Shown: positions 6,712 through 32,145, counted from the stretch's first letter. The stretch: DNA of 64,000 bases from Deltaproteobacteria bacterium (GCA_029261875.1 JAJDAL010000034.1:85066-149065), one strand, 5' to 3'. Notes: generated from the letters alone by a model not told the origin. Numbers and translations: made by a program.

Positions 6712-6719
6712 GGGACAAG

Positions 6720-7877
6720 ATGAGGCACTGGATCATCGCCATGTTACTCGGGCTCTCGACCCTTGCAGGAAAATCCAGCGCATTCGACAACGACTTCCAC
6801 GTGGTGCTCAACGGAATTGGCCGAGAGGTGATCGCCAACGACAGTTACACCGGAATCCTGGACACCGATGCCCGCACGATCAGTTGGTGGTACCGGTCGC
6901 ACATAGGGACGTTTCCATCCGTCTGGGGAATCATCTACTGGGGACAGACATGGTCCATTCAGCTGGAAGGTTTTGATGGCGGAAGTATCAACTGCGAGTG
7001 CGGGGGGAACAAGATCGCATGGACAGCGAACAACAACCCTGCGATGGGCTCTCTCCAGAATTGGCAATGGCATCACATAGTGATGACCGCTCCAGCGGGT
7101 GGAACTTACGGCGACATCAGGCTCTACTTGGATGGTGTTTTGCTCCCGACCCCCTCAGTGGTCGGAGGTAGCTTCGCAAACAGCTACGACACGATTCCGT
7201 TCATTCCCTATCGGGCAGGAGCGCGGAACCTCGGCAACCACGCAGACGCCGACATGGACGAAATCGCGCTGTGGGATGCAGAACTTAACGCGTCGGCAGT
7301 AGCGGAGATTTTCAACGGTGGGATTCCAACCGACCTTGAAGTCAACGGTGCTTCCTACACCAACGCGGGAGACCTTCAGCTCTACTGGAGATTCGAGGAA
7401 GGCAGCGGGCTGGAGACAGCTGACGTAACGGAGAGCGGTCACGACGGTGACCTCATCGGCGGTGACACGGTTTCATCCTGGGGAACCAACCCGCCGGGCT
7501 CAGGCTCCGACTCGGACGGCGATGGAATCCTCGACGGTTTCGACAATTGCGTGGACGACGCCAATCCTGGGCAGGAGGACGCTGATTCAGATCTAGTTGG
7601 AGACATCTGCGATCCCTTCCCCAGTGACCCAGACAACGAGCAGGCGCAATGCGAAGTGGACCTGGCTGATGCCGAAGCCGCTGCGAATGCTTGTTTCGGT
7701 GCAGCCCCAGCGTGCAGCGACGGGGTTGACAACGACAACGATGGATTTATCGACTTCTCGGGAAACGACCCCGAGTGTGTCACGGCGTTAGACAACGCCG
7801 AGGGATGCGGACTTGGCGCTGAACTGGTTCTACTAATCCCGCTGTTGCAACGGATACGCCGCAAGCGATCTTTTTAG
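6720..7877 (+). CDS. Secreted LamG (concanavalin-A-like) - TSP3 protein with a GC-TM-RRR (MYXO-CTERM-like) tail
   Basis: Leader MRHWIIAMLLGLSTLAGKSSA. LamG_3-type motifs DARTISWWYRS, WHHIVMTA, GDIRLYLDGVL and DMDEIALWDAELNASAVAEIFNGG. TSP3 repeats. Tail EGCGLGAELVLLIPLLQRIRRKRSF. Confidence 0.85.
   Translation: MRHWIIAMLLGLSTLAGKSSAFDNDFHVVLNGIGREVIANDSYTGILDTDARTISWWYRSHIGTFPSVWGIIYWGQTWSIQLEGFDGGSINCECGGNKIAWTANNNPAMGSLQNWQWHHIVMTAPAGGTYGDIRLYLDGVLLPTPSVVGGSFANSYDTIPFIPYRAGARNLGNHADADMDEIALWDAELNASAVAEIFNGGIPTDLEVNGASYTNAGDLQLYWRFEEGSGLETADVTESGHDGDLIGGDTVSSWGTNPPGSGSDSDGDGILDGFDNCVDDANPGQEDADSDLVGDICDPFPSDPDNEQAQCEVDLADAEAAANACFGAAPACSDGVDNDNDGFIDFSGNDPECVTALDNAEGCGLGAELVLLIPLLQRIRRKRSF
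7797..7874 (+). other. Putative C-terminal sorting signal (Gly-Cys, hydrophobic helix, Arg/Lys cluster)
   Basis: AEGCGLGAELVLLIPLLQRIRRKRSF has the architecture of the MYXO-CTERM / GC_trans_RRR class of exosortase-type tails. This is pattern recognition only. Confidence 0.55.
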
Positions 7878-7901
7878 AAAAGAACGAAGCTGGAGGATCT
7901 G

Positions 7902-8756
7902 ATGCGCAGTCTATTCGCCCTCACTATTTTCTTTCTTTGCCAGTCTGCAGCTGTCGCTATTGACTTGCCGGTTGAGTACCTGGCCGACTTCAAGGAGTTC
8001 AAGCGGAACGCTATTGCGGGTGACTCGCTCTCCTTCGATCTCTTCGACAACGACACCTGCACCGGTCCCGTGACCCACGCGGAGCTTAAGTTCGTAGGCG
8101 GTGCCGGTCTCACCGTTGAGAAAACGCTCCCCCAGAAGGCCAAGGGGCAGAAGCCCTCGCCGACGAAGGGTGTCCGGCTTCACACCTCGCTGTCACCGGC
8201 GGCGGTTGAGGAGCAGCTCTACCTCAAGGTGACGGGTACGGGTGTTGTGGCGCTGCGGGATGAATGCCAGGTACAGATCGCGGGGGTTCCTGGGCCGGAA
8301 GGGCCGGCTGGACCGCCGGGCGACGCTGCGGAAGTGATGCACGTATTTGATGGAAGCGGGAACGACATTGGGATTCGGATGGGATCGCTGAACGACCTTT
8401 CCGCCTATCGACCATCTCTGGACGCCACGCTGCCAATCACGAAATTCGGAACGCTCGACGCAGGTCCCTCGCACGTGTACGAACTACCCGGATGCCTCGG
8501 GCAGGGGTACTACCAGGGCAGCAAGGCCCTTCTGTCCGCGAACGTTGTCTATGAGAGCAGGTTGGTGCCTGGAACTTACGTTATCGGCACCACCACCGTC
8601 GTTTCGAGCACCTACGAATCAGTGGCAGACCCTGGCGGTATTTGCCAAGCGACGGGGCCAGCGAACGATCCGTCCCTCATACCATTCGCTCCCATCGTTA
8701 TCGACCTAACCTTCCCTTTGCCGCTTCCGATGCGGATCGGGCCAGCTTCACCGTAG
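7902..8756 (+). CDS. Secreted B-family protein P3
   Basis: GGAGG RBS. Leader MRSLFALTIFFLCQSAAVA. N-domain IDLPVEYLADFKEFKRNAIAGDSLSFDLF..KGQKPSPTKGVRL..EQLYLKVTGTGVVALRDECQVQ. Five G-X-Y triplets. Head with YELPGCLGQGY and tail TFPLPLPMRIGP. Confidence 0.85.
   Translation: MRSLFALTIFFLCQSAAVAIDLPVEYLADFKEFKRNAIAGDSLSFDLFDNDTCTGPVTHAELKFVGGAGLTVEKTLPQKAKGQKPSPTKGVRLHTSLSPAAVEEQLYLKVTGTGVVALRDECQVQIAGVPGPEGPAGPPGDAAEVMHVFDGSGNDIGIRMGSLNDLSAYRPSLDATLPITKFGTLDAGPSHVYELPGCLGQGYYQGSKALLSANVVYESRLVPGTYVIGTTTVVSSTYESVADPGGICQATGPANDPSLIPFAPIVIDLTFPLPLPMRIGPASP
8283..8327 (+). repeat. Collagen-like G-X-Y tract (5 triplets) in P3
   Basis: GVP GPE GPA GPP GDA read directly. Confidence 0.8.
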
Positions 8757-9045
8757 CCCCACCGTCGATGGCGACCGTTTGCACCCCGTCCCCCGAGTAT
8801 GGGGGATTCCCGGCTATTCATTACTTAATGCCTTGCAGGGGCCTCGCGGACAGCGAGACTCCCAACGGCACCCCCTACCCCCACACACAGCGTCGCCGAC
8901 ATCGAAGTGTGAGCCCTCGCGCCGAGTGAATTCCTCGAAATCAGGGCTCCCGACATAGCGATTCCGTCGTTGGCCCCGACCTCTCGAATGGAAAATCCAC
9001 ATCGGCGCGACCTGATTCGACGCGGCCGCGCGCTACGCCGTGGCG

Positions 9046-9504
9046 ATGCCCACCGAACGCGAGCTGTACGCCCAGGTGCTCGAGCTGCGCCGCCTGCTCC
9101 ACGGCAAGCCGCCCTCCAGCGGAGGTGTCGATCACGCCACCGGCAACGAGCCCGATGAGCAGACACTACTGGGCGCCACTGCACTTGGGGCCCCGAACGC
9201 CGCCGCCCACGAACTTCACGCGAACATCGAGCGCACTCGGAACAACCTCCGCAGCTTCTTGCTTCAGGAGCGCCAACTGCTGAACGTGGCTAAGGGGATA
9301 TTTCGCCTAACCGTCATGCTTTGGATCCTGGGATTCCCAGTGCTGCTCAGCTTCTCAGAGTTAGAGGTTCGAAGCTGGAGCGATCTCGCGTTGGGCTTTT
9401 CCCTGTGGAGCGTAGTCGTGTGGCCGACGTATGGCGTTTCGATTTGGGTAGTAGCTGGATTCCGGTCTTCGGCTACTACTCCGAGAAACGACGATTCCAG
9501 GTAA
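9046..9504 (+). CDS. Hypothetical membrane protein
   Basis: ORF with a helical N-part and 2-3 hydrophobic segments (IFRLTVMLWILGFPVLLSF, LGFSLWSVVVWPTYGVSIWVVAGF). No recognisable family. Coding status is uncertain. Confidence 0.35.
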   Translation: MPTERELYAQVLELRRLLHGKPPSSGGVDHATGNEPDEQTLLGATALGAPNAAAHELHANIERTRNNLRSFLLQERQLLNVAKGIFRLTVMLWILGFPVLLSFSELEVRSWSDLALGFSLWSVVVWPTYGVSIWVVAGFRSSATTPRNDDSR

Positions 9505-9705
9505 AACCCTTGTACCGGAACTCCCCGCAACCGCGTTGGGCCGCACCTCGGACGCTGACTTACTTTTCCAACACTCCTGCTTGCGAGACCAGCCGCATGT
9601 AGATGCCGAGGACGCCGGTTCCTACGTCGGGCGATGCGGGTCCAGCAATGGCTTCGCGAGATGTCTCGCACTGATGGTCGTCGGCTGAAGCCTGTCGTTG
9701 GTCGG

Positions 9706-10713
9706 CTAGACAAGCCCGTTGAATCGCCAATCAACGAACTCGTGATCAGCGACCGGCAGCGGAGCCGAAGAAAAAAATCGCGTCAACCGAGCCAGTATGG
9801 TTTGACGTATCGTGGACTGCCAAAGCCACCAGTCACGTGAAAAATATACGTTCTCCAGGTAACCGAGACAGATCTGCGGAACCAAGCTCGCTATTCGGTC
9901 ATCCGGGCATTCGAGGACCGAACTGACGAACTCCGCTGGCCTCGAGTCGAGAACCCGCCATGCGAAGGCTAGGTATGTGATTTCCTTATTTGGTAGAAGC
10001 GAGACCGCAATTGTTTCGCAAGGTGAAGACTCATCACCTAGGTCTTGAAGCCGGTTGCACTGGAGGTCGAAGTCGGGCGTAAACACCCCGGCAGCGGCAA
10101 TGACTGGTGCACCTGAAAACTCGAGAACGCGATACTCGAGGACGGCGGGGTTGCGTTCCAGAAGAGCACGGTCTACTTCGGCCTTCAGGAGGGCCATATC
10201 TCGCTGGCCCAAATCGGATCCCAGCAGGTTTCCTTCAAGAGATTCTAGATTCGCCAAGGCAATCAGATTCTCGTCTCGACTGACCACCGAGGCAGCGTTC
10301 AGCATGGATCGCGCGTGGGCCGCCTTCCTGTAGATGTCGAACGATATGGCACGGAACGCCAGCAACATGCACTGGGATGGCGACGCAGTGAAGGGCTCAT
10401 TGTCGATTGGTGCGAATTCACGATCGTGAACCTCGCAGATACCTCGAAACGTTGAAGCGACTCTCAGGCCTACCTGCTTGGGTTGCGGGGTATCAACGAA
10501 CGGGTCCACAGGGTGGAAACTCAGCACGTGTCCGGTGTCGTCAGCGATGTGTGACAGGGTGGCCGCTCGGGAAAGACTATGGGCATCGATGATTCGCCCA
10601 CATTTCGATCCCGCTGATGGGTGGCGGCATTCTGGTCGTCGAAATTCGCGTACTAGGTCAGCCGTTAGCTGGCCTCGAGTGCGACGAATTAATCTCTCTC
10701 GGTCTCGGTCCAA
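9706..10713 (-). CDS. Hypothetical protein (orphan, Cys/His motifs)
   Basis: 335-aa ORF in a visibly less GC-rich patch. Motifs ECRHPSAGSKCGRIIDAHSLSR and GICEVHDREFAPIDNEPF. No family recognised. Confidence 0.6.
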   Translation of the reverse strand: MDRDRERLIRRTRGQLTADLVREFRRPECRHPSAGSKCGRIIDAHSLSRAATLSHIADDTGHVLSFHPVDPFVDTPQPKQVGLRVASTFRGICEVHDREFAPIDNEPFTASPSQCMLLAFRAISFDIYRKAAHARSMLNAASVVSRDENLIALANLESLEGNLLGSDLGQRDMALLKAEVDRALLERNPAVLEYRVLEFSGAPVIAAAGVFTPDFDLQCNRLQDLGDESSPCETIAVSLLPNKEITYLAFAWRVLDSRPAEFVSSVLECPDDRIASLVPQICLGYLENVYFSRDWWLWQSTIRQTILARLTRFFSSAPLPVADHEFVDWRFNGLV

Positions 10714-10913
10714 TCTGGCCGCCTAAACGTACTGGGCGCTGCCACAGGCGGGGCGCTCGCCCCCGGTGCGTGAACGCCTCGGACCACTGGAAGGTACCAG
10801 AGCCAGCAATAACCGGAATCGGGGGCATGGCGCGCAACGACGAGACGAGTTTTCGAGAATTCACCGAGTCCTTTTCGTTGAACTCAGTGAAGTCGCATCG
10901 CTGACAAGCGCAC

Positions 10914-11693
10914 CTAATTTTGATTCGTCTTACACGCCTTGCATACACACGCGTTCGGACACTCATCTGATAAGCCGCTTGCGCCTATGTGACAAGGGCC
11001 ACCGATGCCACCGTACGCCGGTCCACCAATTCCTGCATAACATGGCCCCCCGATTCCATCGTATGCCGGCCCACCAATTCCTGCGTAACATCTGTCACGC
11101 TTCCGGCGCCCTGATTGCTCCTCCGACGACCCCGCATCTAGCAACTCTACCAGCGCGCGAACATAATCATCGTTTCCGTAACGCGACATAAGTGTTTTCG
11201 ACATCTTTCGCCTAGTTTGCGAATCTATCTGGCCGGTCAAAGGTATTTGATTTTCGCGCTGGAAGGTCCGTATCGCTGCGATCGTGTTAGGTCCCTTCTT
11301 CCCGTCAATGACTCCGCATTCATATCCCAACAGCTTCAGTCCTACCTGGACCGCACTCGTCAATTCCGAAACAGACCCTTGTCGCACTCTCTCCGGATTC
11401 CGTCGAACTTTGACCCCGCCTGAGACAGGCGTAACTGACAATGATTTTCCGTTGACACGAAGCTCCCCTCGACTCGGGCAAATCACGACTGATGGATAGT
11501 ACTCGTACATGTACTGGTACTCGAACATCACCTTCCACAGCGATCCATCGGCGAGCTTGAATACTTCGTCATTTCCCATAAATGGTACGGGGCTAATAAT
11601 CGAAGATCGGTGGCACCGCTCGGCATACGCATCCGCTGAAACACCAACGGCAAAGAACGACGTAACTAGAAAAAGAAGGCGCGGGAATTCCAT
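10914..11693 (-). CDS. Secreted peptidoglycan-binding-domain protein with GIGGP repeats and a Cys-rich end
   Basis: Leader MEFPRLLFLVTSFFAVGVSADA. PG_binding_1-like LKLLGYECGVIDGKKGPNTIAAIRTFQRENQIPLTGQIDSQT. C-terminal (Y-x-GIGGP-x)x4 followed by CPNACVCKACK. The start overlaps the upstream stop as TAATG. Confidence 0.75.
   Translation of the reverse strand: MEFPRLLFLVTSFFAVGVSADAYAERCHRSSIISPVPFMGNDEVFKLADGSLWKVMFEYQYMYEYYPSVVICPSRGELRVNGKSLSVTPVSGGVKVRRNPERVRQGSVSELTSAVQVGLKLLGYECGVIDGKKGPNTIAAIRTFQRENQIPLTGQIDSQTRRKMSKTLMSRYGNDDYVRALVELLDAGSSEEQSGRRKRDRCYAGIGGPAYDGIGGPCYAGIGGPAYGGIGGPCHIGASGLSDECPNACVCKACKTNQN
10995..11090 (-). repeat. Four tandem 8-aa Y-x-G-I-G-G-P-x coding repeats
   Basis: CYAGIGGP AYDGIGGP CYAGIGGP AYGGIGGP read from the translation. 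Confidence 0.8.
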
Positions 11694-12034
11694 TACGGAT
11701 CGAAGCAACGAATCTTCCCGGTCCAGGGGGAGTAAATATTGATGTAGTACACAGAGGTTAATGCTGTGAGAAAGCCCTGCAGAAAGCTTCGTTCGGTCTC
11801 GATCTCTTGCACGTGACCCATTCCACACACATCACTCGCGTCAATCTCAATATCGCTCGGGACTAGGCCGAAAATCCAGAAGTTCTGCCAATCATTCTTT
11901 GACTCTTCCCGACCGGAGTGAGGCTGAGTCGGCTCAAATTCTTCCGCATAGAGGTTGATGTAGTGAGTACGGAAACAGCCCGACAACATCACACCTGCGA
12001 GAAGAAGACACATTACACATCGTCGCCAACGCAT
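11693..12034 (-). CDS. Bor/Iss-family-like lipoprotein (copy 2)
   Basis: Lipobox MRWRRCVMCLLLAGVMLSGC. FWIFGLVPSDIEIDASDVCG..VQEIETERSFLQGFLTALTSVYYINIYSPWTGKIRC parallels lambda Bor FFVSGIGQKKTVDAAKICGG..VKTETQQTFVNGLLGFITLGIYTPLEARVYC. Confidence 0.7.
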   Translation of the reverse strand: MRWRRCVMCLLLAGVMLSGCFRTHYINLYAEEFEPTQPHSGREESKNDWQNFWIFGLVPSDIEIDASDVCGMGHVQEIETERSFLQGFLTALTSVYYINIYSPWTGKIRCFDP

Positions 12035-12036
12035 CC

Positions 12037-12333
12037 TCAATTCTTCTCGCGACAGTAGTACGTTGATGAGCGCGGTGAATAGATACCTAGTGTCACTAGG
12101 CTCAGCAGAGCGTCCTCGGCCAACGTCGCCTCTTCGATAGAAGCAACTCCATCCGGACAATGCTCGCGAACGTCTACGGTTCTCGTTGGCGTCAGACCCC
12201 AAAAGAAGTAGTCCTTGCGTTCTTGAACTTCCTGAACTCTACCCGTTGGATCTTCTAGTTCAAAGATCATCGAGTTGCACGCCACGCATCCGGAGATAGC
12301 GAGCGCAAAATCTATTTGGTTGCCGATCTTCAC
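12037..12333 (-). CDS. Bor/Iss-family-like lipoprotein (copy 1)
   Basis: GTG start with AGGAGAA upstream. Lipobox LAISGC. FFWGLTPTRTVDVREHCPDGVASIEEATLAEDALLSLVTLGIYSPRSSTYYC. The stop is 2 nt before copy 2. Confidence 0.65.
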   Translation of the reverse strand: MKIGNQIDFALAISGCVACNSMIFELEDPTGRVQEVQERKDYFFWGLTPTRTVDVREHCPDGVASIEEATLAEDALLSLVTLGIYSPRSSTYYCREKN

Positions 12334-12431
12334 TATCAGGTTCTCCTCTTTCTAGCGACGACCCAGTAGTGTCGTGCGTGGCGCGCAACCCTCCGATCGT
12401 TGAGGTAAATCGAAAAGAGAGACACCGTTGC

Positions 12432-13343
12432 CTACTCAGCGCGCGAATGGATCGGCAGAGCGAGAGGTACAGGCATGCCGACCACCGTGCTCAGTACCTC
12501 TCGCGCAGTGACTGCTTCCGGCCTCACTCCGACTGTGTTCATACACCCTGGAGGCGAGAGCAGGTCAATAATCGACTCGAACGGAGCCGATGACACCAGT
12601 TCGTTTCCCCCAACGAAGAAACGGTCAGGTGCGGTAACAGGACCAGTGAAGACGAGCCGAGTTGCGAACTCGAACGGGAGGTACGCGGTCCCGACGCAAT
12701 TCGGAAGCTCAAAGACGATGGCTCCCACCCCGGTGGGTCCGATCAAGAGTCCATTGGACTTGTCGATGAGAACGAATGCATCGAGATCCTCACGGTACGC
12801 CGTAACCGTAGTCAGCGGCGAAAAGATGAGATCCTCTCGGATCAGCAGCCCCAAGTTAACATCGCTGCCGTCGAACACTCGGAGAGTCAGTCCACTCGCT
12901 CCGGGCGGCCCTTTCGCCCCTTCTGGGCCGGACGGCCCCGGTATCGCCGCAGTTTGAACCTGACACTCGCCGCCAATGGGTACGACACCGTCGCCGCTCA
13001 CCTTCAAGTAGAGCTGCTCAACCACAACAGGCGGCCCAAGAGTTGTCCGAAGCCGCACTCCCCTGGGCGGCGACGGCTTTTCCCCCTTGGCTTTCTGCGG
13101 GATGACTTTCTCCACTTGGAGGTCTCCACTCGCCAGAAACTTCAGCTCCGCGTGAAACACCGTCCCGGTGCAGTCCGCGGCCGCGAAGAGGTCAAAGGAA
13201 AGAGAGTTTCCGGCGACGGCCTCTTTCTTGAAGGTCTTAAAGTCCGCGACATACGAAACGGGAAGCTCGACTGCGCTTCCAGAACTTGCGAACGAGAGTA
13301 TGGCGAGTGCAACAATGCACATCCCGAAATCACTGAACTTCAT
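12432..13343 (-). CDS. Secreted B-family protein P4
   Basis: Leader MKFSDFGMCIVALAILSFASSGSA. N-domain VELPVSYVADFKTFKKEAVAGNSLSFDLF..KGEKPSPPRGVRL..EQLYLKVSGDGVVPIGGECQVQ. Six G-X-Y triplets. Head with FELPNCVGTAY and tail MPVPLALPIHS. Confidence 0.85.
   Translation of the reverse strand: MKFSDFGMCIVALAILSFASSGSAVELPVSYVADFKTFKKEAVAGNSLSFDLFAAADCTGTVFHAELKFLASGDLQVEKVIPQKAKGEKPSPPRGVRLRTTLGPPVVVEQLYLKVSGDGVVPIGGECQVQTAAIPGPSGPEGAKGPPGASGLTLRVFDGSDVNLGLLIREDLIFSPLTTVTAYREDLDAFVLIDKSNGLLIGPTGVGAIVFELPNCVGTAYLPFEFATRLVFTGPVTAPDRFFVGGNELVSSAPFESIIDLLSPPGCMNTVGVRPEAVTAREVLSTVVGMPVPLALPIHSRAE
12885..12938 (-). repeat. Collagen-like G-X-Y tract (6 triplets) in P4
   Basis: GPS GPE GAK GPP GAS GLT read directly. 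Confidence 0.8.
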
Positions 13344-13402
13344 CTCTGCTTCTCCTCCGCCGTGCAACAGTCACGGGACGTTTTTCCAGCTGACTTTCCG
13401 GC

Positions 13403-14026
13403 TCAAGAAGGCGGTGCACAGCACGCGATCGAACGGAAGTCATTGCAGTTCCTCAGGTCAAATGCCCCGTTCGATTCCACCATCAGCCCGGACTCGGCGG
13501 TAAGCCGCCTCCATGCGTCACAAGACATGGAACCTGTCGATCCGCTTGATGGCGTGAAAGCCCCGGACACGTCCGCGATAACACTGTTCGTCGTGCCCCT
13601 AGGGAGCACCACAAAAACAGGTCGGACCCATGCCTCGCCCGATAGGGTTGGGACGTTGACTGTTTCGAGTACTTCCTTACTGGTGCACATCCGGCTATTC
13701 GAGAACTCCGCGTGGCAAGCCGACGTATATTCCAGGACACCATCACCTCCTTTAAACGTCGCGGTGGTAAAGCCCACTAGCTCGTATCGCGGCGACACCC
13801 CCGCCTCGCCCTGTGGCCCCTGCGCTCCATCTTGTCCAGCCGACCCAGCCGGTCCAGGTGGGCCTTCCGATTCCCACGAAATCGCAGCCTCGTTCGACTT
13901 GCACTGGCCCGGGATCGCAACGACACGGAGCTTCCCTGACTTTTGGTGCACACAGCCATCGATGGTTTCGCCTGCAGCCGTTCCAGCTAAAAGAACCGCC
14001 GCGCCAATTGCGATTAGTTCACGCAT
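13403..14026 (-). CDS. Secreted Q-family collagen-like protein Q1 with a Cys-rich endostatin/C-lectin-like C-domain
   Basis: GGAGG RBS. Leader MRELIAIGAAVLLAGTAAG. ETIDGCVHQKSGKLRVVAIPGQCKSNEAAISWE. Eight G-X-Y triplets. C-domain ELVGFTTATFKGGDG..ACHAEF..MC..SCDAWRRLTAESGLMVESNGAFDLRNCNDFRSIACCAP. Confidence 0.8.
   Translation of the reverse strand: MRELIAIGAAVLLAGTAAGETIDGCVHQKSGKLRVVAIPGQCKSNEAAISWESEGPPGPAGSAGQDGAQGPQGEAGVSPRYELVGFTTATFKGGDGVLEYTSACHAEFSNSRMCTSKEVLETVNVPTLSGEAWVRPVFVVLPRGTTNSVIADVSGAFTPSSGSTGSMSCDAWRRLTAESGLMVESNGAFDLRNCNDFRSIACCAPPS
13793..13864 (-). repeat. Collagen-like G-X-Y tract (8 triplets) in Q1
   Basis: GPP GPA GSA GQD GAQ GPQ GEA GVS read directly. Confidence 0.8.
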
Positions 14027-14067
14027 TACCTGCCTCCGCTTAGGGGTTCCCTCCGCCACCGGGAAGG

Positions 14068-14367
14068 TCAATAACAGACGGTGTCCCACACCCAATTTCC
14101 GTATGCATCCTGCCGTCGCACCTGCGTGCAATTATCTGTCCCGATGGGCGGAATATTGAGCCGTTCGACCGGTCTCACTGAAGGCGGAACAATGGGCGTA
14201 ATAGACGGTGGTTGCGGTGGCACGATGTTGATAGTTGAATCACAGATCGGAACATTGGCGCAGTCGCCACTCTCGTCACAGATCCATTCCCAGGTGCATG
14301 ATGCCGCCGCCGGGTTGGCAACTACAATGCACCCGATCAAAGCCAAGATCGCGAAAGTTGATCGCAT
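14068..14367 (-). CDS. Small secreted Cys-rich, Pro-rich protein
   Basis: Leader MRSTFAILALIGCIVVANPAAA. Then SCTWEWICDESGDCANVPICD, a Pro-rich PPQPPSITPIVPPSVRP and the C-terminal CTQVRR..WVWDTVCY. Lies 41 nt upstream of Q1 on the same strand. Confidence 0.6.
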   Translation of the reverse strand: MRSTFAILALIGCIVVANPAAASCTWEWICDESGDCANVPICDSTINIVPPQPPSITPIVPPSVRPVERLNIPPIGTDNCTQVRRQDAYGNWVWDTVCY

Positions 14368-14873
14368 GGCACGCCTCCTAGTCACGGAATGCTGCACAAC
14401 CCGTGCCGACAGTCGCGCACTAGGGTTCGTGAGGCGAAGGCTCCTACGACAAGAAGTCACGCGCGGCCAAGATCATGGGTCGAAACGCAGCACCGGGTCG
14501 AGAATCGTTTTCCGCAAAAATGGACCGCTCGATGAATAAGAACCGTCTCGAACTCTCCGCGGTACAGAAGCGAATCATGTCGATACCTAGGGAATTTGAC
14601 CTATTCCTGGGAGGTGGTCGCGAAAGCATCCGCAGCCAACGTGAACGACGCATTTGAGGTCTATGAAACCGTGAAACGAGTTCTCGGGTGGGACGTTTAA
14701 GTCGTCTACTATGCGGCGTGATTCCTACGTAGTATGAAAAGGGAGCATCAGGGCTTCCTCTCTACCAGACTCAGCCTTGCCTGACGGATCGACACCGAGA
14801 CCCCCTCTCTGGTCCGTCTTAAGTGTCGCCGGACGAAAGAGCACAACACGCGGGGAAACAGTTCAGTCGTTCC

Positions 14874-15416
14874 CTAACGATACGTCGGCAGCAGAACGTA
14901 GCCCCCGTTCCACTCGGTACAGATGGTAGTTGCCACCGTCGCCGCCCTTACGCCTCCCTCGACCTCATCACACTTCTTCTTCGAGATGAATGGACCTACT
15001 GTTTCCTCCACATAATTTATGTGCAACCTACGCTTCACCCCTGAAGTCATTTCGTAGACTGTGAACACCCAAAGGTCTCCCATAAGACCGTCGCGGGAAA
15101 GGCTCTCGTTGAGAACGATCTCGCTTTCGGCCGCAGCGCGCTTGTACGCAGAGCACATCGCACGAGATCGTTTAGCCATGCTGGCAAATATCTCGCGGAT
15201 CATCTCATCTGCTTCATCGTCATTGTCATCGATCTTCCTGGCGCACCGCTCCTCCCTCCGGTCAATGTTTGCCGCGTACAGGCGTGCGAACTCAATCGAA
15301 ATAGGCTGCGCCCTCACTTCGGCCGTTGTTCTCTCGATAAATTGATCCAGAGGCTCTTCGCATCCCGAAACCAATATGACGAGAGATACTAGACCGAGGA
15401 AATCTCTAATCACCAC
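14874..15416 (-). CDS. Hypothetical lipoprotein
   Basis: Lipobox LVILVSGC. Visibly AT-richer than its neighbours. No family recognised. Confidence 0.6.
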   Translation of the reverse strand: MVIRDFLGLVSLVILVSGCEEPLDQFIERTTAEVRAQPISIEFARLYAANIDRREERCARKIDDNDDEADEMIREIFASMAKRSRAMCSAYKRAAAESEIVLNESLSRDGLMGDLWVFTVYEMTSGVKRRLHINYVEETVGPFISKKKCDEVEGGVRAATVATTICTEWNGGYVLLPTYR

Positions 15417-15830
15417 ATCCTCCTTTGGTTCCGCTTCCGTGAACTAGTGGACCACTCGAAAGGTTAACTCGCCTACACAAACCTGACTCAGAATCCTTCC
15501 CTAGGTACCCGCAGTCGGCATGTGGTTTGCGTTGTGAAGAAACTAGGGGGTGAGGAACGATGAACGAGTTCGATCGAGTGGCGATTCGCCGCGCCATGCG
15601 GATCGTGGATGGGTGTGACCCAGGACCCCACCCGGGCCTTAGGGTCTCACTGTTGTCAGAGGAAATGCAGGACGAGCTGCGAGGGCTGATAGGGCGCTTG
15701 CCCTATATCACAGGGCTTCCGGTAGCCCAGATAGTCCTCCTAGTCTTCTATAGCTTCGGCTTGCGACCCTGATTCCCACCGCACCGAGTTCCACGCGTAG
15801 AATGGCCTCTGGCTTGCACAGGAGTTGGAC

Positions 15831-16409
15831 ATGTTGAAACAGACTCTTGTTCTCTTGGTCATGTTGGTTCTAGTTCCTGGCATCGCGGCTACCGAGACGA
15901 TCAACGGCTGTGTCCACCAGAAGTCCGGGAAGCTTCGGATCGTCGGTATTCCGGGACAGTGCAAGAGCAGCGAAGCACCGATCTCTTGGGAGGCTGAGGG
16001 ACCGCCCGGTCCCGAAGGGGCGAAGGGAGATAAGGGCGATAAAGGTGACCCCGGTGATCCCGCACCCCAGGCACAGCCGGTGGAACTCGTAGGTTTTACC
16101 GCGGCGCAAATCGCTGGCACGGACTCGTTCTTCGCGCTCAACACAGCCTGCGTCGATGAATTCCCCGGTAGTCACTTCTGCACAGCCACAGACATTGCAC
16201 AAGTATCCGTTCTGCCTGCCGGACTCATAGGCGATGCGTGGTTTACGCCAGCGCCCGGTCCAGATCTCAACTTCTTGAGCAGTTCTCGTGCCTGTAGTGG
16301 CTGGTCGCCTGGTGGCTCAACTGGCCTCCGCATCAATCACATCGGCGTAATAGTTCAGGGTGTGTGTAACCAATCCTTTTCGGCATCGTGCTGCGCACCC
16401 GCACCGTAA
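15831..16409 (+). CDS. Secreted Q-family collagen-like protein Q2
   Basis: CAGGAG lies 7 nt before the ATG. Leader MLKQTLVLLVMLVLVPGIAA. ETINGCVHQKSGKLRIVGIPGQCKSSEAPISWE. Seven G-X-Y triplets. C-domain VELVGFTAAQIAGTD..ACVDEF..FC..ACSGWSPGGSTGLRINHIGVIVQGVCNQSFSASCCAP. Confidence 0.8.
   Translation: MLKQTLVLLVMLVLVPGIAATETINGCVHQKSGKLRIVGIPGQCKSSEAPISWEAEGPPGPEGAKGDKGDKGDPGDPAPQAQPVELVGFTAAQIAGTDSFFALNTACVDEFPGSHFCTATDIAQVSVLPAGLIGDAWFTPAPGPDLNFLSSSRACSGWSPGGSTGLRINHIGVIVQGVCNQSFSASCCAPAP
15999..16061 (+). repeat. Collagen-like G-X-Y tract (7 triplets) in Q2
   Basis: GPP GPE GAK GDK GDK GDP GDP read directly. Confidence 0.8.
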
Positions 16410-16411
16410 CC

Positions 16412-17683
16412 ATGGCGTTTCGATTCAGACTTCCCGAGGCTCCTATGAAATGTGTCCATGTATTCGTTCTCCTCAGTTCCATGTTCCTTCTCGCGCCCCG
16501 AGCTACAGCGGAGATGGTGCCGCTGTTGATTGACCCGGTTTCAATCTCCGTCTCTGTCAGGATCACACAAGGCGAAGGTGCGCCGGTCGAGACAGACAAT
16601 TCAGGTACTGCTTCGGCATCCGCGCAGCTACATAGGAACTTGCTTAGTAATTCTTTCGGCGAGGGCAGTTTAAGCGCAGCCGTAGAAGCCGACCGGATCA
16701 GTTTTGCGGGAGCCGCTAGTGGCTTTAATACCGCAGGGGTCGGTAGTAGCCTAGTTAGGATTGTCTTGAGTAGCGAACTGGAGGTTGCGTTTGATGTCCC
16801 CGATATCGGATTTGCGCTTACGCCGGTCGTCCTGCAGTTCGTCAATGTTTCTCCTCCGAGCGCAACAATATCCATCTCATTCTTCAGCACACTTCTGAAC
16901 GCTGAGCTAACTACCCTCAATCAGACGATAGGTTCTGAAGATGCAGTTGTCCTCGACCTCCTTCCCGGAGATCGGATTATTGTCTCCGGAACCGTACAGG
17001 CTGGTGCCTTGTTCGTTCCCCCTTTCAACGGATCGGGGTCATTCTCAAACTCGTCCCAGTTCCGTTTTCAGGTATCGGACAATCCGAACAACCTTGTCGA
17101 GTGCCAGTCGAACCTCACTCAATGCGTCTCCGATTTGGGGGGTTGTTTGACCAATGCCGCAACCTGCGAGTCCGATCTAAATCTGGCCTTGGGGGATCTC
17201 GCATCGTGTAACGCAACCCTCACCCAACTGGCAACAGATGTTGCTTCATGTAACGACAGCCTTACCGCGTGCTCCACCGACCTCACACAAACGACAACCA
17301 GTCTCTCCCAATGCAGTACCGCTCTCGATTCTACAAGCACGCAGCTATCTGAGGCGCAATCGAGTCTAGACGCAGCCCTCTCCGATTTGGCGCAATGCCT
17401 TTTAGATCCCGGACTACAAGACAGTGATGGTGATGGCGTTCCAGATCCAGGAGATCTATGCCCAAACACAGCCACTACCGATCTCGCCGACGCCCTGGGC
17501 TGTTCACTCCACCAATTTTGCTCGATGGTCAACGCTACGAATCGAGTTGGCAGTCGGGTCTGCAGGAAATCCGATTGGGTCAATGATGAACCTCTGATGA
17601 AGGGTCGCGAGCGAGACTGCACGATCGACAAACGCGGCCGCGGACGAGATGACGATCTCTGCGTGCCCAATCCAGAATTCTAG
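16412..17683 (+). CDS. Secreted A-family protein A3: unknown N-domain, about 100 aa of heptad Cys/Leu coiled-coil-like segment, one TSP3 unit and A-CTD
   Basis: The ATG lies 3 nt after the Q2 stop; an alternative ATG at 16445 gives MKCVHVFVLLSSMFLLAPRATA. Tail DSDGDGVPDPGDLCPNTATTDLADALGCSLHQFC..CRKSDWVNDEPLMKGRERDCTIDKRGRGRDDDLCVPNPEF. Confidence 0.8.
   Translation: MAFRFRLPEAPMKCVHVFVLLSSMFLLAPRATAEMVPLLIDPVSISVSVRITQGEGAPVETDNSGTASASAQLHRNLLSNSFGEGSLSAAVEADRISFAGAASGFNTAGVGSSLVRIVLSSELEVAFDVPDIGFALTPVVLQFVNVSPPSATISISFFSTLLNAELTTLNQTIGSEDAVVLDLLPGDRIIVSGTVQAGALFVPPFNGSGSFSNSSQFRFQVSDNPNNLVECQSNLTQCVSDLGGCLTNAATCESDLNLALGDLASCNATLTQLATDVASCNDSLTACSTDLTQTTTSLSQCSTALDSTSTQLSEAQSSLDAALSDLAQCLLDPGLQDSDGDGVPDPGDLCPNTATTDLADALGCSLHQFCSMVNATNRVGSRVCRKSDWVNDEPLMKGRERDCTIDKRGRGRDDDLCVPNPEF
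17093..17398 (+). repeat. Heptad-periodic Cys/Leu segment (coding)
   Basis: Cys-to-Cys spacings are 7,7,7,14,14,7,14,28 residues. Leu/Val sits 3 residues before each heptad end. Counted directly in LVEC QSNLTQC VSDLGGC LTNAATC ESDLNLALGDLASC NATLTQLATDVASC NDSLTAC STDLTQTTTSLSQC ...LSDLAQC. Confidence 0.85.
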
Positions 17684-18085
17684 ATAGGAAATTCGATGCG
17701 TTCCTTTAGCCGAGTTTCTTTAGTACTAGCCACTGTAACTTTCGCGATGACTGGTCATGCCATTGACCTACCTGTGACCTACCTCGCCGACTTCAAGGAG
17801 TTCAGGCGAAACGCCATCGCTGGCGATTCACTCTCCTTCGACCTCTACACCGACGACGCCTGCACGGGGGTCGTGGCTCACGCGGAACTGAAGTTCGTGG
17901 GCGGTTCCGGGCTCACCGTCGAGAAGACGCTGCCCCAGAAGGCCAAGGGTCAGAAGCCGTCACCGACGAAGGGCGTGCGGCTCCACACGACGCTGTCGCC
18001 CGCGGCGGTGGCCGAGCAGCTCTACTTGAAGGTGACGGGCACCGGCGTCGTCGCGTTGGGAGATGAGTGCCAAGTGCAGGTGGCG
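17414..18085 (+). repeat. Conserved 'hinge' copy 2: A-CTD, 12-nt spacer and B N-domain
   Basis: See 284..985. The flanks (A body upstream, B head downstream) are unrelated between the two copies. Confidence 0.8.
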
Positions 18086-18562
18086 GGGATTCCTGGACCG
18101 GAAGGACCCAAGGGCGATCCCGGACCCTTGCTGGATGTCGCGGCGCGAGTCTATAGCGCGAATGACATAACGGTGGCGCGGTTCTCCAGCCAAGCGCTGA
18201 GTTTTCCAGAGGAGCGATGGGATACGGCTGCCCTGCATGACCCAGCCCAGCCATCAAGAATCGTGATTCCAGCAAGCGGGAACTACCTGATCTATGCGAA
18301 TCTGGCCTGGAGCGCTGCGGACCTGTTTGGAACGGAGCGCTTTGTGATGCAGTTTCGAGTGAATGGGTCACAGATAACCGCCTCACAAACCAACAATGCC
18401 GACGGGCTCCCTTTGAACCCAACCCATTCTCTTAGTACTGCCGCGCTTTTAGTAGCCGGAGACTACTTGGAGGTTGTAGTAGAGCACAGTGCCCCGAGCA
18501 ACCGGCGCATCGTGGCTCTTCCCGACTACTCACCGGACTTCGGAATCGTTCGTCTCCCATAA
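17696..18562 (+). CDS. Secreted B-family protein P5 with a C1q/TNF-like head
   Basis: Leader MRSFSRVSLVLATVTFAMTGHA. Conserved N-domain. Tract GIP GPE GPK GDP GPL. The head motifs IVIPASGNYLIYANLAW..FVMQFRVNGSQI..STAALLVAGDYLEVVVE..SPDFGIVRLP match the C1q jelly-roll pattern. Starts 12 nt after the A3 stop. Confidence 0.85.
   Translation: MRSFSRVSLVLATVTFAMTGHAIDLPVTYLADFKEFRRNAIAGDSLSFDLYTDDACTGVVAHAELKFVGGSGLTVEKTLPQKAKGQKPSPTKGVRLHTTLSPAAVAEQLYLKVTGTGVVALGDECQVQVAGIPGPEGPKGDPGPLLDVAARVYSANDITVARFSSQALSFPEERWDTAALHDPAQPSRIVIPASGNYLIYANLAWSAADLFGTERFVMQFRVNGSQITASQTNNADGLPLNPTHSLSTAALLVAGDYLEVVVEHSAPSNRRIVALPDYSPDFGIVRLP
18086..18130 (+). repeat. Collagen-like G-X-Y tract (5 triplets) in P5
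   Basis: Read directly from the translation. Confidence 0.8.
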
Positions 18563-19651: not shown

Positions 19652-19782
19652 TCTCGGAGCTAACCGAGGCCAGATGCGTCCCCCGAAAGTAACGATTCCT
19701 CCGGGCCAGCCCCCCTGCCCTAGCGGTTCTAGCGCCGCGTAACGTGCGTGCGCAGTGGGTTTTCTGTAGCAGTGGGTAACAT

Positions 19783-20316
19783 ATGGAGACGATGTCGAAA
19801 GGTGTCCCTTCAGGTTCTAGTGACTGCCGTAGACCTATTGAGCAATGGGAAAGGAGACCATTGGCCGATGTAGGACAGTTGGTCCGGGAACTGCGATCGA
19901 CATCCGGAATGACTCAGGCGCAGCTAGGTGCGGCCGCAAAACTCTCCCGGGTCCAGGTCTGTCGAATCGAGAAGGGAACGAGACGGACGCGGCGTTCGAC
20001 GCTTGAACGAATTTCCGCTGCGATCAGTGCGAAGCGGCCGTGGCTGGGAACACCCGCCCTTCTAACTCAGCGTCTTGTATCAATGGCAGGAGACGCCCTG
20101 GCGCCTGAGTCGAAGTTTCGAGAGCGAATCGAGCGTCGGCGGCTTCGGAGGATTCGGAAATCTCGACGCCAGGTAGAGAGCCGAACACCGCGGCCCGGCG
20201 AAAAGTCGCAGCACTATCTTCGCCGCTTGGATTCGCTCGGCCGATCACCGGCATCGGATGTGCCCTGCCCCACCTGCGGCCAGTTCAAGGCCCGCCGAAC
20301 GATCTGGGCAGATTGA
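19783..20316 (+). CDS. XRE/Cro-C1-type HTH transcriptional regulator
   Basis: LVRELRSTSGMTQAQLGAAAKLSRVQVCRIEKGTRRTRRSTLERISAAI fits the HTH_3 pattern. Basic C-terminal part with CPTCGQ. Confidence 0.75.
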   Translation: METMSKGVPSGSSDCRRPIEQWERRPLADVGQLVRELRSTSGMTQAQLGAAAKLSRVQVCRIEKGTRRTRRSTLERISAAISAKRPWLGTPALLTQRLVSMAGDALAPESKFRERIERRRLRRIRKSRRQVESRTPRPGEKSQHYLRRLDSLGRSPASDVPCPTCGQFKARRTIWAD

Positions 20317-20436
20317 TGCGCGTCCCGAAAGGTTCAGGTTTTGGGACCAATGGTCCGGTGTCGATTGCCGACCCAAGTACGGGAGCTTACGGACTCCCTT
20401 GTCCCGCGAATCGCGCACCCTTTTGGGACATGCAGT

Positions 20437-21036
20437 CTACGACGCAACGTTTGCCGCCTTTGGCTTGCTGACAACACGCCCCACGCTTGCCTTCGAGACG
20501 CCCACTAGGCCGGCGATCTCGCGGATCGTGCGGCCAGACTCACGCAGTCTCACGATTCGGCGCTGTAGCTCGCCGGTGACAGTCTTGGGGCGTCCTATGC
20601 GCGTTCCATTGCGTCGAGCGGCCCGCATACCCATCGCGATTCGATCACGAATCAGGTCACCTTCAAACTCCGCGATAGCCCCGAGAACGTGAAAGAGAAG
20701 CCTCCCCGTTGGCGTCGATGTATCAATCGCTTGATCAAGAACAATGAGGTCAATTCCGAGTGCCTCTAGCTCTCCCGCCAATGTTGTGAGGTGGCGAACG
20801 CTTCGGGCCAATCGATCGAGCTTCCAGACCAAAATAGCGTCAAAACGTCTCCGTCTGCCGTCCGCAATCATCTGATCGATCGCAGGCCTACGCTGAGCGG
20901 AGCCTGACACTCCATTGTCTATGTAGACCTCGACTACCTCAAGGTTTCGTACGGCGGCATATGACGTTAGTTCATCGATCTGGTTCTCGGCATGCTGCTC
21001 CTTCGTCGAAACACGACCGTACACGGCGACTCGCAT
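20437..21036 (-). CDS. Small serine recombinase (resolvase/invertase family)
   Basis: MRVAVYGRVSTKEQ catalytic Ser context, LVWKLDRLARS, GRLLFHVLGAIAEFE, and the C-terminal HTH GRTIREIAGLVGVSKASV. Confidence 0.9.
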   Translation of the reverse strand: MRVAVYGRVSTKEQHAENQIDELTSYAAVRNLEVVEVYIDNGVSGSAQRRPAIDQMIADGRRRRFDAILVWKLDRLARSVRHLTTLAGELEALGIDLIVLDQAIDTSTPTGRLLFHVLGAIAEFEGDLIRDRIAMGMRAARRNGTRIGRPKTVTGELQRRIVRLRESGRTIREIAGLVGVSKASVGRVVSKPKAANVAS

Positions 21037-21424
21037 GGCAATCCCTCCGGCTCTCAAATCTAGATGCAACGGTCTCGTTTGCATAGGAAACGAATTGAGA
21101 AAACGAAAGTACGGTCTTCCACTTTGGAGTCCCCGCCCTGGAGCCCGAAGCACACGTAGGGTCGCGCTTAACAGCCCCACGCAGAACATGCGGGGAGTTG
21201 AGATCGGACAGAGGCCCCCCACCCCCCTTCTGGGTAATGGGTCCCATCTAGCTGTCACTTGGGGCCCCAGCGGCGCTCCCCCAAAAAAAACTGTTCGCGC
21301 GCGAGGGAGCTCCGACTAAACTCTTGTGGGGCGCGGCTCGGCTCGGCCGGCCGAATGTCGGGATCCTGCAACCGACGTGCCGCGCCCTCCTTTTACGCTG
21401 CAGGACGCGCCAGCAGGAGGCGCA

Positions 21425-22216
21425 ATGGCTGTCACTATCGACACATTGCTCGCTCACCTCGAGCCCTTTGACCTTCTTTCGCGTGACGATGCAACGCAAC
21501 GAATCGTACACATCGACGAACACTTTCGACACGCGGTGACGACTGGGCGACCACTCCGATCTTCTGAGATCACGCGCGACCTTGATCTTGTAGTTCGCCG
21601 AGCGTCTGACCTGCGCGATGCGATGAACAACTTGGACCCCCGGATAGTTGTTACTCTTGGTACCCAGGACGGAAGGCGTGACCTTGGCGACCTGCGGACG
21701 CGTGCCGGAATTGATTCCCTTTGGAAGCGTCTCTCCGCGCCTTGGGAGCAAGACCCTTGGGTCGGGCGCTTGTCAGCACTTATCGATCTCTGCTCGTACA
21801 CCAAAGAGACGTTGGTCCCGGACGCAGGTGGCCCCACTGCCGGCCTCGGGTACTCCAAGTTCTGGCTTGCACAAGAATGTGCGTTGTTGTTTGGAATGGC
21901 TGGGCAACCTTTGATTTCTGGAACAGCCAGCGGTCCACTCCATTCCTTCGCGGAGGACATGCTCGAGTTTTGCGGCGAACCACCCGTAGAACCTCGGGAT
22001 CGGATGCACAAAGCGATCAAGCAGGCTGTTAAGCGTCTTCCCCGAAAGTTCATCCAAGAACAAGCCAACGAACTCCGAAGTGGGAAATCAGGCGGACATC
22101 CGGATGATGCGTTCCGGAACCAACTCTTGGATTTCCATACAGCAATCGAGCGCTCGCGACTCTTCCCAAGCGCGGTGATACCCGAGACTCCCACTGAGTC
22201 AGATTTAGGGAAATAA
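21425..22216 (+). CDS. Hypothetical protein (element cargo)
   Basis: 263-aa ORF from the ATG at 21425. No family recognised. Followed by a hairpin. Confidence 0.55.
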   Translation: MAVTIDTLLAHLEPFDLLSRDDATQRIVHIDEHFRHAVTTGRPLRSSEITRDLDLVVRRASDLRDAMNNLDPRIVVTLGTQDGRRDLGDLRTRAGIDSLWKRLSAPWEQDPWVGRLSALIDLCSYTKETLVPDAGGPTAGLGYSKFWLAQECALLFGMAGQPLISGTASGPLHSFAEDMLEFCGEPPVEPRDRMHKAIKQAVKRLPRKFIQEQANELRSGKSGGHPDDAFRNQLLDFHTAIERSRLFPSAVIPETPTESDLGK

Positions 22217-22242
22217 CCCCCCCCATTTTACTCGGGGTTATT
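22212..22242 (+). terminator. Stem-loop overlapping the stop codon of 21425..22216
   Basis: aataacccc (22212..22220) pairs with ggggttatt (22234..22242) across a 13-nt loop. There is no clear T-run, so its function is uncertain. Confidence 0.3.
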
Positions 22243-22323
22243 CCCCTAGTTCCAATGACGACGGCATGCGACCGTTCGCTCTCGAACGCAGTGGTTGCCA
22301 ATACCACGACGGGGGCACATCGA

Positions 22324-22575
22324 ATGCGAACTGAATCTCTTCCTCACCTCTTAACGCAACAAATTGTTGCTGACCTTCTCCACATCTCCGAACGAACGCT
22401 CGAAAGATGGCGGTGCACTGGCGTTGGGCCGCCATTTGCCAAAGTCGGTCGCCGATGCCTCTACCGGGTCAAAGACCTGGAGGAATGGGTCGAGAAATGC
22501 AGCCACACCTCCAGAGAGAGAGCCCTTGCGCCGATGGGCAAGCCGACGCCTGATGGCCAGTTCGGCGGAGCATGA
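22324..22575 (+). CDS. AlpA/excisionase-like HTH DNA-binding protein
   Basis: LLTQQIVADLLHISERTLERWRCTGVGPPFAKVGRRCLYRVKDLEEWV fits the HTH_17/AlpA pattern. The stop overlaps the next start as ATGA. Confidence 0.7.
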   Translation: MRTESLPHLLTQQIVADLLHISERTLERWRCTGVGPPFAKVGRRCLYRVKDLEEWVEKCSHTSRERALAPMGKPTPDGQFGGA

Positions 22576-25166: not shown

Positions 25167-25543
25167 TGTCGGAGTTCATTTCTCGCTGGGCGACCTGGCG
25201 AGGTAGTCTCCAAACTACAAACGTTCCAGCGTGGGCACCCGCAAAACCTGCAAAAGAATGTTTTGAGGGTTTTGAGGGGCTCAATTCAGCCTCGGATTTG
25301 CTTACAGCGGCCTCCATCGTCGAAATCCGGCGGGACGTATCAGCTGTTCGTTTCCAGAGCAACGACTTCGACAGCTACTGGGTAGTCCGCGACGAAGATG
25401 CAGCGGCCAAGGTCGCCGCCGAAGGAAATGGCCTCCCGGTGTTTACTTTCGAGGAAGTCGCCAAGCTCCACGGAAAGTCACCGGAAATGCTGCGAGCCGT
25501 GCTCAACACCAAGGCCACGTTCCCGACGGCGAGGGTGCTGTAG
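25163..25543 (+). CDS. Hypothetical protein
   Basis: ATGA overlap with the primase stop. 126 aa. No family recognised. Confidence 0.55.
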   Translation: MMSEFISRWATWRGSLQTTNVPAWAPAKPAKECFEGFEGLNSASDLLTAASIVEIRRDVSAVRFQSNDFDSYWVVRDEDAAAKVAAEGNGLPVFTFEEVAKLHGKSPEMLRAVLNTKATFPTARVL

Positions 25544-32095: not shown

Positions 32096-32145
32096 TCCAC
32101 TCCCGAACACAACCCCCATGGCTCGAAAGGAGCGCAATGCCCCGC

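Follow-up and report, generated by a model that had tools for sequence, protein, structure and literature searches.

Can a bacterium build secreted proteins from a collagen-like stalk and a lectin-type head, and would such proteins be kin to the animal collagens that carry endostatin? The question is raised by two divergently arranged genes, Q1 and Q2, in a 64,000-nucleotide stretch of DNA from a Deltaproteobacteria bacterium (GCA_029261875.1 JAJDAL010000034.1:85066-149065; hereafter the window). An initial annotation had described the two products as collagen-like proteins with a cysteine-rich, endostatin-like head, and had proposed them as bacterial analogues of the multiplexin collagens. 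We find that the head is predicted with high confidence to adopt a C-type lectin-like fold, and that it recurs throughout a large bacterial family. The comparison with multiplexins is not specifically supported.

Two paralogues with a predicted C-type lectin-like head

Q1 and Q2 (Table 1) are 41% identical over 198 alignment columns (BLASTP, E 2e-42) and are paralogues. They are identical to database proteins P0021 and P0001, respectively, and the gene calls agree on 207 and 192 residues. The enclosing open reading frames (ORFs) are 13403-14131 (minus strand) for Q1 and 15825-16409 (plus strand) for Q2; for Q1 we place the start at the ATG rather than at the TTG of the 242-residue ORF, and a Shine-Dalgarno sequence stands ahead of the ATG of each gene (Table 1). 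As originally described, both proteins carry the leader-proximal string ETI(D/N)GCVHQKSGKLR(V/I)V.IPGQCKS.EA.ISWE, a direct scan counts eight (Q1) and seven (Q2) G-X-Y triplets, and CCAP closes either head. Some positions in the originally quoted dot-patterns of the head are wrong by one residue. The G-X-Y tract is single and uninterrupted, and ends ∼5–8 residues before the head. In all homologues the module that precedes it (hereafter the N-module) starts directly after a hydrophobic leader comparable to those of Q1 and Q2. A search of the window with the family profile (hmmsearch) returned Q1 and Q2 only, with no third copy of the Q-type head or N-module.

AlphaFold2 (AF2), run on the Q1 head with a 55-sequence alignment, gave a model with a predicted local distance difference test score (pLDDT) of 93.7 and a predicted template-modelling score of 0.88 (pLDDT 92.4–93.7 over five models). 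Its strands (E) and helices (H) run E6-10, H21-31, H40-44, E55-57, a loop hairpin, E103-108, E113-117 and E122-128. This is the order of a C-type lectin-like domain (CTLD): β1, α1, α2, β2, long loop, β3, β4 and β5. When the model was compared with the PDB by Foldseek, every one of the best 50 of 202 matches was a CTLD (best E 3.4e-3, probability 0.97–0.99), which bears out the C-lectin fold first proposed for the C-terminal region. The PDB matches include snaclecs/snake-venom lectins, tetranectin, MBP-A/C, human MBL, CD23, NKG2D/CD94 and mincle. The best matches in BFVD are a poxvirus C-type lectin-like protein, a phage DUF1566 protein (second best; probability 0.95, template-modelling (TM) score 0.43/0.48) and herpesvirus UL45.

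Of 227 domains of the family, none lacks C28 (in helix α1) or C126 (in the last strand), 224 have C93 and 225 have C118; the spacing from C118 to C126 has a median of 7 residues (range 7–9). These four cysteines occupy the positions of both disulfides that are canonical for CTLDs and endostatin. The head thus appears to hold the two canonical CTLD disulfides, one from α1 to the last strand (C28–C126) and one from just before β3 to the β4–β5 loop (C93–C118). Moreover, C38 (in SRMC) and C127 (the second cysteine of CC) occur together in 209 domains, are both missing from 17 and occur singly in just one. This co-occurrence argues for a third disulfide, C38–C127, which the head also appears to have. 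A set of large lipoprotein-like proteins that end in two tandem Q-type heads (P0055, P0056, P0088, P0103, P0106 and P0113) is without it (ARMATS ... VACS); in these proteins long collagen tracts alternate with modules of the pattern W.G.W....Y..D.V.F.G.SYI......G..P.....W.

Conservation extends to an invariant tryptophan, W57, and to the polar positions R36, E42, R/D59 and D76-x-S-G. By contrast, the segment between W57 and C93 varies widely in length, from 10 to 45 residues (median 27), with 35 in Q1 and 17 in Q2. The Q2 head, with its short loop from W to the third cysteine, is also without the D.SG motif.

How widespread is this head? We scanned 1.84 billion cluster representatives (clusters at 50% identity) with the head alignment in HMMER and retrieved 1,507 at E≤1e-3, of which 650 reach E≤1e-10. 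The domain sits at the C-terminus, ending within 5 residues of it in 121 of the 151 top proteins. None of 55 family members matches any Pfam or NCBIfam model. Named matches are almost all 'hypothetical protein' (one has an unrelated name), and the few members with a named organism come from Polyangiaceae, Byssovorax, Minicystis, Haliangium and Myxococcaceae. A scan of species-representative genomes with an 8-sequence alignment added five loci in metagenome-assembled genomes ('Deltaproteobacteria', Myxococcales and Acidobacteriota). Judged by these sequence searches, the head belongs to a large domain family of bacteria for which neither Pfam nor NCBIfam has a model. The family, now defined, comprises at least 1,500 clusters at 50% identity, and the confident predicted model assigns it a fold, that of a C-type lectin-like domain with three predicted disulfides.

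A word-indexed search with Q2 had suggested an orphan head, as it found two head relatives only; the exhaustive HMMER scan overturned that idea. The two relatives (L001, a 651-nucleotide GCA_044232445.1 contig, and L002, a 681-nucleotide ENA contig) look chimeric or truncated in mid-head, and L001 reads on in another frame into what looks like endonuclease-V sequence.

Endostatin and other possible kin

The initial annotation had gone further and proposed an endostatin-type C-lectin fold for the head. Taken strictly, this would make the head an endostatin/DUF1554-type domain that shares ancestry with the NC1 endostatin found in collagens XV and XVIII, and Q1 and Q2 bacterial counterparts of the multiplexins. 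The endostatin strings it quoted were correct when checked. Several of the parallels, moreover, are genuine. Endostatin (PF06482; PDB 1BNL, 1KOE, 1DY2) is itself a collagen-attached domain of the CTLD superfamily. Its nested disulfides tie α1 to the last strand and the C-x-x-W to the strand before that, a pattern also predicted for the Q head. The spacing from first strand to first cysteine is identical (LVGF-18 residues-C versus LVAL-18 residues-C), with the G-G pair in register; a C-x-x-W follows at the third cysteine (compare endostatin CETW); that cysteine lies ∼10 residues ahead of β3, as in endostatin, not at the start of β3; and 7 residues separate the last two paired cysteines in both. 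In the hhalign alignment, C93, C118 and C126 are matched with endostatin C135, C165 and C173.

Formal tests, however, give at most weak support to a specific relationship. The four endostatin structures 1BNL, 1KOE, 1DY0 and 1DY2 are not among the best 50 of the 202 Foldseek matches, and those 50 are canonical CTLDs throughout. The Pfam Endostatin model finds no match at E≤10 in Q1 or Q2, nor at E≤1 in 55 members; three profile searches of PDB sequences did not find endostatin; and hhalign gives P 0.03–0.09 with a probability below 2%. We calibrated the hhalign score against column shuffles. Endostatin scores 17.9 (null 11.6 ± 2.0), a value reached by 1 of 200 shuffles, and three collectin lectin domains, our control, do just as well (P 0.027; 16.8, null 10.7 ± 2.3; 2 of 200 shuffles). 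Since endostatin and collectins reach about equal levels, we read the faint signal in the sequence as one common to the whole superfamily, and dropped endostatin-specific homology as unproven. Of the proposed endostatin-type C-lectin fold, then, the CTLD part is supported and the endostatin part is not.

DUF1554 (PF07588) fares no better. It matches none of the 55 domain members; among 10 more divergent proteins a single fragment match (profile positions 2–24, the N-terminal motif) was found, at E 0.27. The most endostatin-like subgroup, from myxobacteria (A6), reads FAGFT..Y.GNLGGR...H..C..EF.GSHLCHA.EY, and its motif T..Y.GNLGG....A..C resembles the N-terminal motif of DUF1554. Yet a profile search with A6 reached 68 proteins, none of them annotated as DUF1554. 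The Leptospira Len/DUF1554 lipoproteins, the bacterial adhesins already known as 'endostatin-like', attach to host matrix and to factor H (PMC2387172). Like Q1 and Q2 they are bacterial surface or secreted proteins with a predicted endostatin/CTLD-like domain; unlike them they lack a collagen stalk, and they give no significant profile match to the Q family.

There are architectural differences too. Endostatin is ∼180 residues long, has a Zn site and an Arg patch that binds heparin, and lacks a third disulfide. In multiplexins the collagen part is split into several interrupted domains and is accompanied by an NC1 trimerization domain and a hinge; Q1 and Q2 have none of these, only one uninterrupted tract. 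Taken with the search results, these missing hallmarks lead us to regard the endostatin/multiplexin reading as quite improbable. The present evidence has no bearing on the origin of endostatin.

Which known systems come closer? In Legionella pneumophila Lcl, an N-terminal helix and a collagen stalk precede a DUF1566 head whose fold is C-type lectin-like, and the protein is an experimentally established trimeric 'lollipop' adhesin that binds glycosaminoglycans (PMC11162425). By analogy, Lcl is the nearest working counterpart of Q1 and Q2: in each of these secreted bacterial proteins a collagen-like stalk joins an N-terminal module to a C-terminal head whose fold is C-type lectin-like (by prediction in Q1 and Q2), and the phage protein that resembles the Q1 head in BFVD is a DUF1566 protein. 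The differences are equally clear. DUF1566 (PF07603) has no match in Q1, Q2 or the 55 members; the Lcl head is disulfide-free and basic, whereas Q heads are acidic with three predicted disulfides; Lcl begins with an amphipathic helix, and Q1 and Q2 with a two-cysteine N-module that is probably a β-hairpin; and the collagen region of Lcl is much longer.

The second comparison is with the collectins. These metazoan proteins consist of a cysteine-rich N-terminus, a collagen region, an α-helical neck and a Ca2+-dependent carbohydrate-recognition domain. Q1 and Q2 share with MBL, SP-A and SP-D the order of cysteine-containing N-terminus, collagen and CTLD; the top Foldseek matches include MBP-A/C, human MBL and tetranectin; and the two predicted core disulfides fall at positions equivalent to those of collectins and tetranectin. 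Unlike collectins, the bacterial proteins have no α-helical neck and no EPN/QPD or WND motif, 7–8 triplets rather than ∼20–60, and a predicted extra disulfide, and there is no significant sequence similarity (hhalign, as above). The relationship is therefore analogy or very remote homology, not membership. BclA and Scl1/2 also pair a trimerizing G-X-Y stalk (with charged triplets and no hydroxyproline) with a globular end domain. Here the end domains differ: BclA has a C1q/TNF jelly-roll head and Scl an N-terminal helical V domain, neither of them a CTLD, and both stalks are far longer than those of Q1 and Q2.

The architecture of Q1 and Q2 thus resembles collectins and Lcl more than multiplexins. 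By sequence they belong to none of the Lcl, collectin or Len/DUF1554 families. We see in them a new CTLD family, predicted to be disulfide-rich, whose modules are arranged in the manner of collectins or Lcl. Bacteria beyond Legionella, it follows, combine a collagen-like stalk with a lectin-fold head, as animal collectins do.

Stalks, proposed trimers and alternative readings

Is the G-X-Y tract a stalk? The first line of evidence is its company. A regular expression for the N-module found it behind the leader in 36 of 288 fetched proteins; a G-X-Y tract follows in every case, with at least 5 triplets (5–44) in 34 and 3 triplets in the other two, and the head behind it is either Q-type or unrelated. 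The N-module matches no Pfam family and is probably a two-cysteine β-hairpin unit. Pfam Collagen (PF01391) scores Q1 and Q2 at 17.6 and 20.3 bits, both under the gathering cut-off of 27.2; relatives built in the same way clear that cut-off and are annotated with PF01391 (for example P0027, P0196 and P0220). Looking from the head instead, 45 of 226 family proteins have a collagen tract of at least 5 triplets upstream, the longest with 52, and 29 have VEVTNFPDPQNV-type repeats there. These VEVTNFPDPQNV-like tandem decapeptide (NFP) repeats would be a third kind of stalk, seen in P0023, P0025, P0028, P0172 and L006 (3716-4381).

PEP-CTERM-like or hydrophobic C-terminal tails occur in ∼30 of the 226. 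In L004 (3842-4606), L007 (3776-4534), P0031 and P0050 a VPEP/PEP motif and a hydrophobic stretch follow the Q-type head, which points to exosortase-dependent surface anchoring in the organisms concerned.

The second line is a similar island in another organism, L010 (JGI metagenome 3300041024), where an array of genes for proteins of 150–250 residues spans positions 7237-14108. L010 encodes two Q-type heads and at least four heads of a second, P-type, so that the Q-type head recurs in islands alongside another. Its P-type heads follow a shared stretch, ARPSLEGLQAQIDxL, and one Q-type head follows a similar stretch (read by eye). This short stretch directly before the head is probably helical, and would in that respect recall the neck of collectins and tetranectin. 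L010 also encodes PEP-CTERM proteins, a protein with thrombospondin-type-3 repeats and a homologue, at 55% identity, of window ORF 2546-3130.

The stretch in front of a head thus varies while heads are exchanged, and at least one such stretch, collagen, is known to trimerize. No other indirect evidence speaks as strongly for a true stalk in the G-X-Y tract of Q1 and Q2. Building on the paralogy, module order, head-family membership and predicted fold described above, we lean towards the reading that Q1 and Q2, each an N-module, a collagen-like tract and a CTLD of 110–130 residues, are Sec-exported and form a secreted trimeric 'lollipop' that binds its ligand multivalently. In such a mechanism the signal peptides would direct Sec export of both proteins. 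Three chains would then zip together through the G-X-Y tract, as we infer from the tract itself and from the alternative stalk-like stretches in relatives, and the two-cysteine N-module might cap, register or cross-link the N-terminal end. The trimer would present three CTLD heads for multivalent binding of a glycan or protein ligand. The variable W57-to-C93 loop corresponds to the long-loop region that holds the ligand sites of canonical lectins, and we propose it on that account as the likely specificity-determining surface. Q1, with its long loop, and Q2, with its short one, could then offer two specificities on one scaffold, as part of an island of secreted proteins with swappable heads.

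Several observations weigh against this reading. The tract, at 21–24 residues, may not make a stable triple helix alone, and the head does not require a stalk, as 68 of the 226 family proteins (∼30%) have a leader and short linker only. The TM-scores against solved CTLDs are 0.35–0.44, which marks the head as a divergent CTLD. Neither the family consensus nor the per-column conservation contains the EPN/QPD and WND motifs for Ca2+ and sugar. Net charge is acidic, with 10 K/R against 13 D/E in the Q1 head and 2 against 7 in the Q2 head. The disulfide partners, finally, are assigned by position.

Some of these points would suit an alternative, that the tract is a flexible Gly/Pro-rich linker and that Q1 and Q2 act as monomers, either secreted or periplasmic, with a binding or toxin-like role in which the head is the functional unit. 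The tract has 7–8 triplets only and stays under the Pfam cut-off, many members make do with a short linker, 41 of the 226 carry tandem heads, and an AF2 monomer model of full-length Q1 (4-sequence alignment) was uninformative, with a pLDDT of 35. However, both paralogues have retained charged and Pro-rich triplets in perfect G-X-Y register despite the divergence of their DNA. Elsewhere the order of N-module, collagen and head recurs with tracts of 5–44 triplets, other members put a helical-looking stretch or NFP repeats in the stalk position, and Lcl shows that the design can be trimeric. We consider the linker reading unlikely.

A third reading would make Q1 and Q2 receptor-binding (tail-fibre-like) proteins of a phage or mobile element, or cargo of an integrative element. 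Tail-fibre families in PHROGs do match both proteins (E 2e-4 to 9e-3), recombinases and a DUF3987 protein lie near the genes in the window, and recombinases lie near homologues in L009 and L011. The PHROG matches, though, centre on the G-X-Y tract (residues ∼53–85), none spanning the whole head, and a pattern scan of 2.9 million IMG/VR contigs found no relative of the head; together these make a phage origin unlikely. Furthermore, no phage structural genes were seen nearby, and neighbouring genes encode secreted proteins in which thrombospondin-type-3 repeats, LamG domains and PEP-CTERM tails occur. We regard this reading as very improbable.

A wider reading is that Q-type, P-type and BclA-like heads are interchangeable cassettes on at least three unrelated stalks (collagen, short helical stretch and NFP repeats), carried in recombinase-flanked islands of uncultured Myxococcota-like bacteria. 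They would amount to a prokaryotic collectin-like toolkit for multivalent recognition or adhesion, whether of prey, kin or matrix. We offer this as speculation that is doubtful at present; a stronger version would make the Q-head family the bacterial sister group from which metazoan collagen-linked endostatin derives. Head-swapping islands are a tractable system for studying the modular assembly of multivalent binding proteins by bacteria and surface recognition by uncultured Myxococcota-like organisms.

The surrounding island

The gene order around Q1 and Q2 is as first described, with the small cysteine protein, Q1 and P4 on the minus strand and Q2, A3 and P5 on the plus strand (Table 1). 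Q2 and A3 also occur together on an independent Logan contig (run SRR15505512). A promoter scan found no sigma-70-like sites, and terminator matches were at chance level.

Table 1. Coordinates of Q1, Q2, their parts and related genes in the window
Feature	Position	Strand	Remarks
Q1 gene	13403..14026	minus	207 residues + stop; ATG at 14026, GGAGG 6 nucleotides upstream
Q1 signal peptide (predicted), MRELIAIGAAVLLAGTAAG	13970..14026	minus	hydrophobic N-terminus; putative cleavage site
Q1 N-module, ETIDGCVHQKSGKLRVVAIPGQCKSNEAAISWESE	13865..13969	minus	35 residues, two Cys
Q1 collagen-like tract	13793..13864	minus	8 G-X-Y triplets, direct scan
Q1 head, six-Cys C-type lectin-like domain (predicted)	13406..13789	minus	ends CCAP; AF2, Foldseek, HMMER family
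Q2 gene	15831..16409	plus	192 residues + stop; ATG at 15831, AGGAG upstream
Q2 signal peptide (predicted), leader MLKQTLVLLVMLVLVPGIAAT	15831..15893	plus	hydrophobic leader, inferred from sequence
Q2 N-module, ETINGCVHQKSGKLRIVGIPGQCKSSEAPISWEAE	15894..15998	plus	35 residues, two Cys; recurs in homologues
Q2 collagen-like tract	15999..16061	plus	7 G-X-Y triplets, direct scan
Q2 head, compact variant of Q1-type domain	16080..16406	plus	hmmsearch with family profile, E 1e-29
Small secreted Cys/Pro-rich protein	14068-14367	minus	99 residues, six Cys; 41 nucleotides upstream of Q1
Lipoprotein ORF (predicted)	14874-15416	minus	lipobox LVSGC; between the two arms
P4, P-family	12432-13343	minus	own N-domain, 6 G-X-Y triplets, P-type head; downstream of Q1
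A3, A-family	16445-17683	plus	secreted; thrombospondin-type-3 repeats, Cys-rich C-terminus; downstream of Q2
P5, P-family	17696-18562	plus	P-family N-domain, 5 G-X-Y triplets; head a weak BclA_C match, E 0.1
P-family paralogue	566-1390	plus	
P-family paralogue	1404-2213	plus	
P-family paralogue	7902-8756	plus	
A-family protein	3833-5014	plus	secreted; thrombospondin-type-3 repeats

The small cysteine protein has a Pro-rich middle, IVPPQPPSITPIVPPSVRPV, and matches no Pfam family. Nor does the ORF with a lipobox between the two arms, which had been singled out as an AT-richer lipoprotein gene; the lipobox is there, and the contrast in composition is slight (GC ∼0.53 versus 0.58–0.60).

The five P proteins of the window are paralogues with a signal peptide, a conserved N-domain of ∼130 residues (IDLPVEYLADFKEFKRNAI.GDSLSFDL...), IPGPPG or 5–6 G-X-Y triplets, and a variable head; neither the N-domain nor the common head falls within a Pfam family. 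Four of the five heads end in FPLPLPL..AP, the fifth being the BclA_C match. The four resemble heads that, in other organisms, stand behind a short, probably helical stretch or a Q-type N-module (blastp E 1e-4 to 4e-13), and that of P4 matches the P-type heads of L010 at E 4e-13.

A-family proteins share a conserved cysteine-rich C-terminus, CSL.QFC..V.A.NR.GSRVC.KSDW.NDEP.MK.R.RDCT.D. Thrombospondin-type-3 repeats are also found in ORFs 4996-6711 and 6696-7877, next to an A gene, the latter with a LamG domain as well. ORF 10914-11828 (minus) combines a domain for peptidoglycan binding (PG_binding_1, E 3e-11) with C-terminal, cysteine-containing GIGGPxY repeats.

The region ∼19700-35000 looks like an integrative element, with serine recombinases at 20437-21258 (minus), 25688-27214 (plus) and 33079-34668 (plus) and the DUF3987 protein at 22572-25166 (plus); no tRNA genes were found in the window. 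Recombinases in the contexts of homologues are a resolvase in L009 and a tyrosine integrase, with RHH and HTH_17 proteins, in L011. Farther along lie a mycosin-type subtilase of 1,163 residues (37694-41185, plus), an Rhs-associated core protein (41394-42422, plus) and a DUF4388-DnaJ-TPR protein (62068-63486, plus). DUF4388 is common in Myxococcota and would fit a Myxococcota source for the window.

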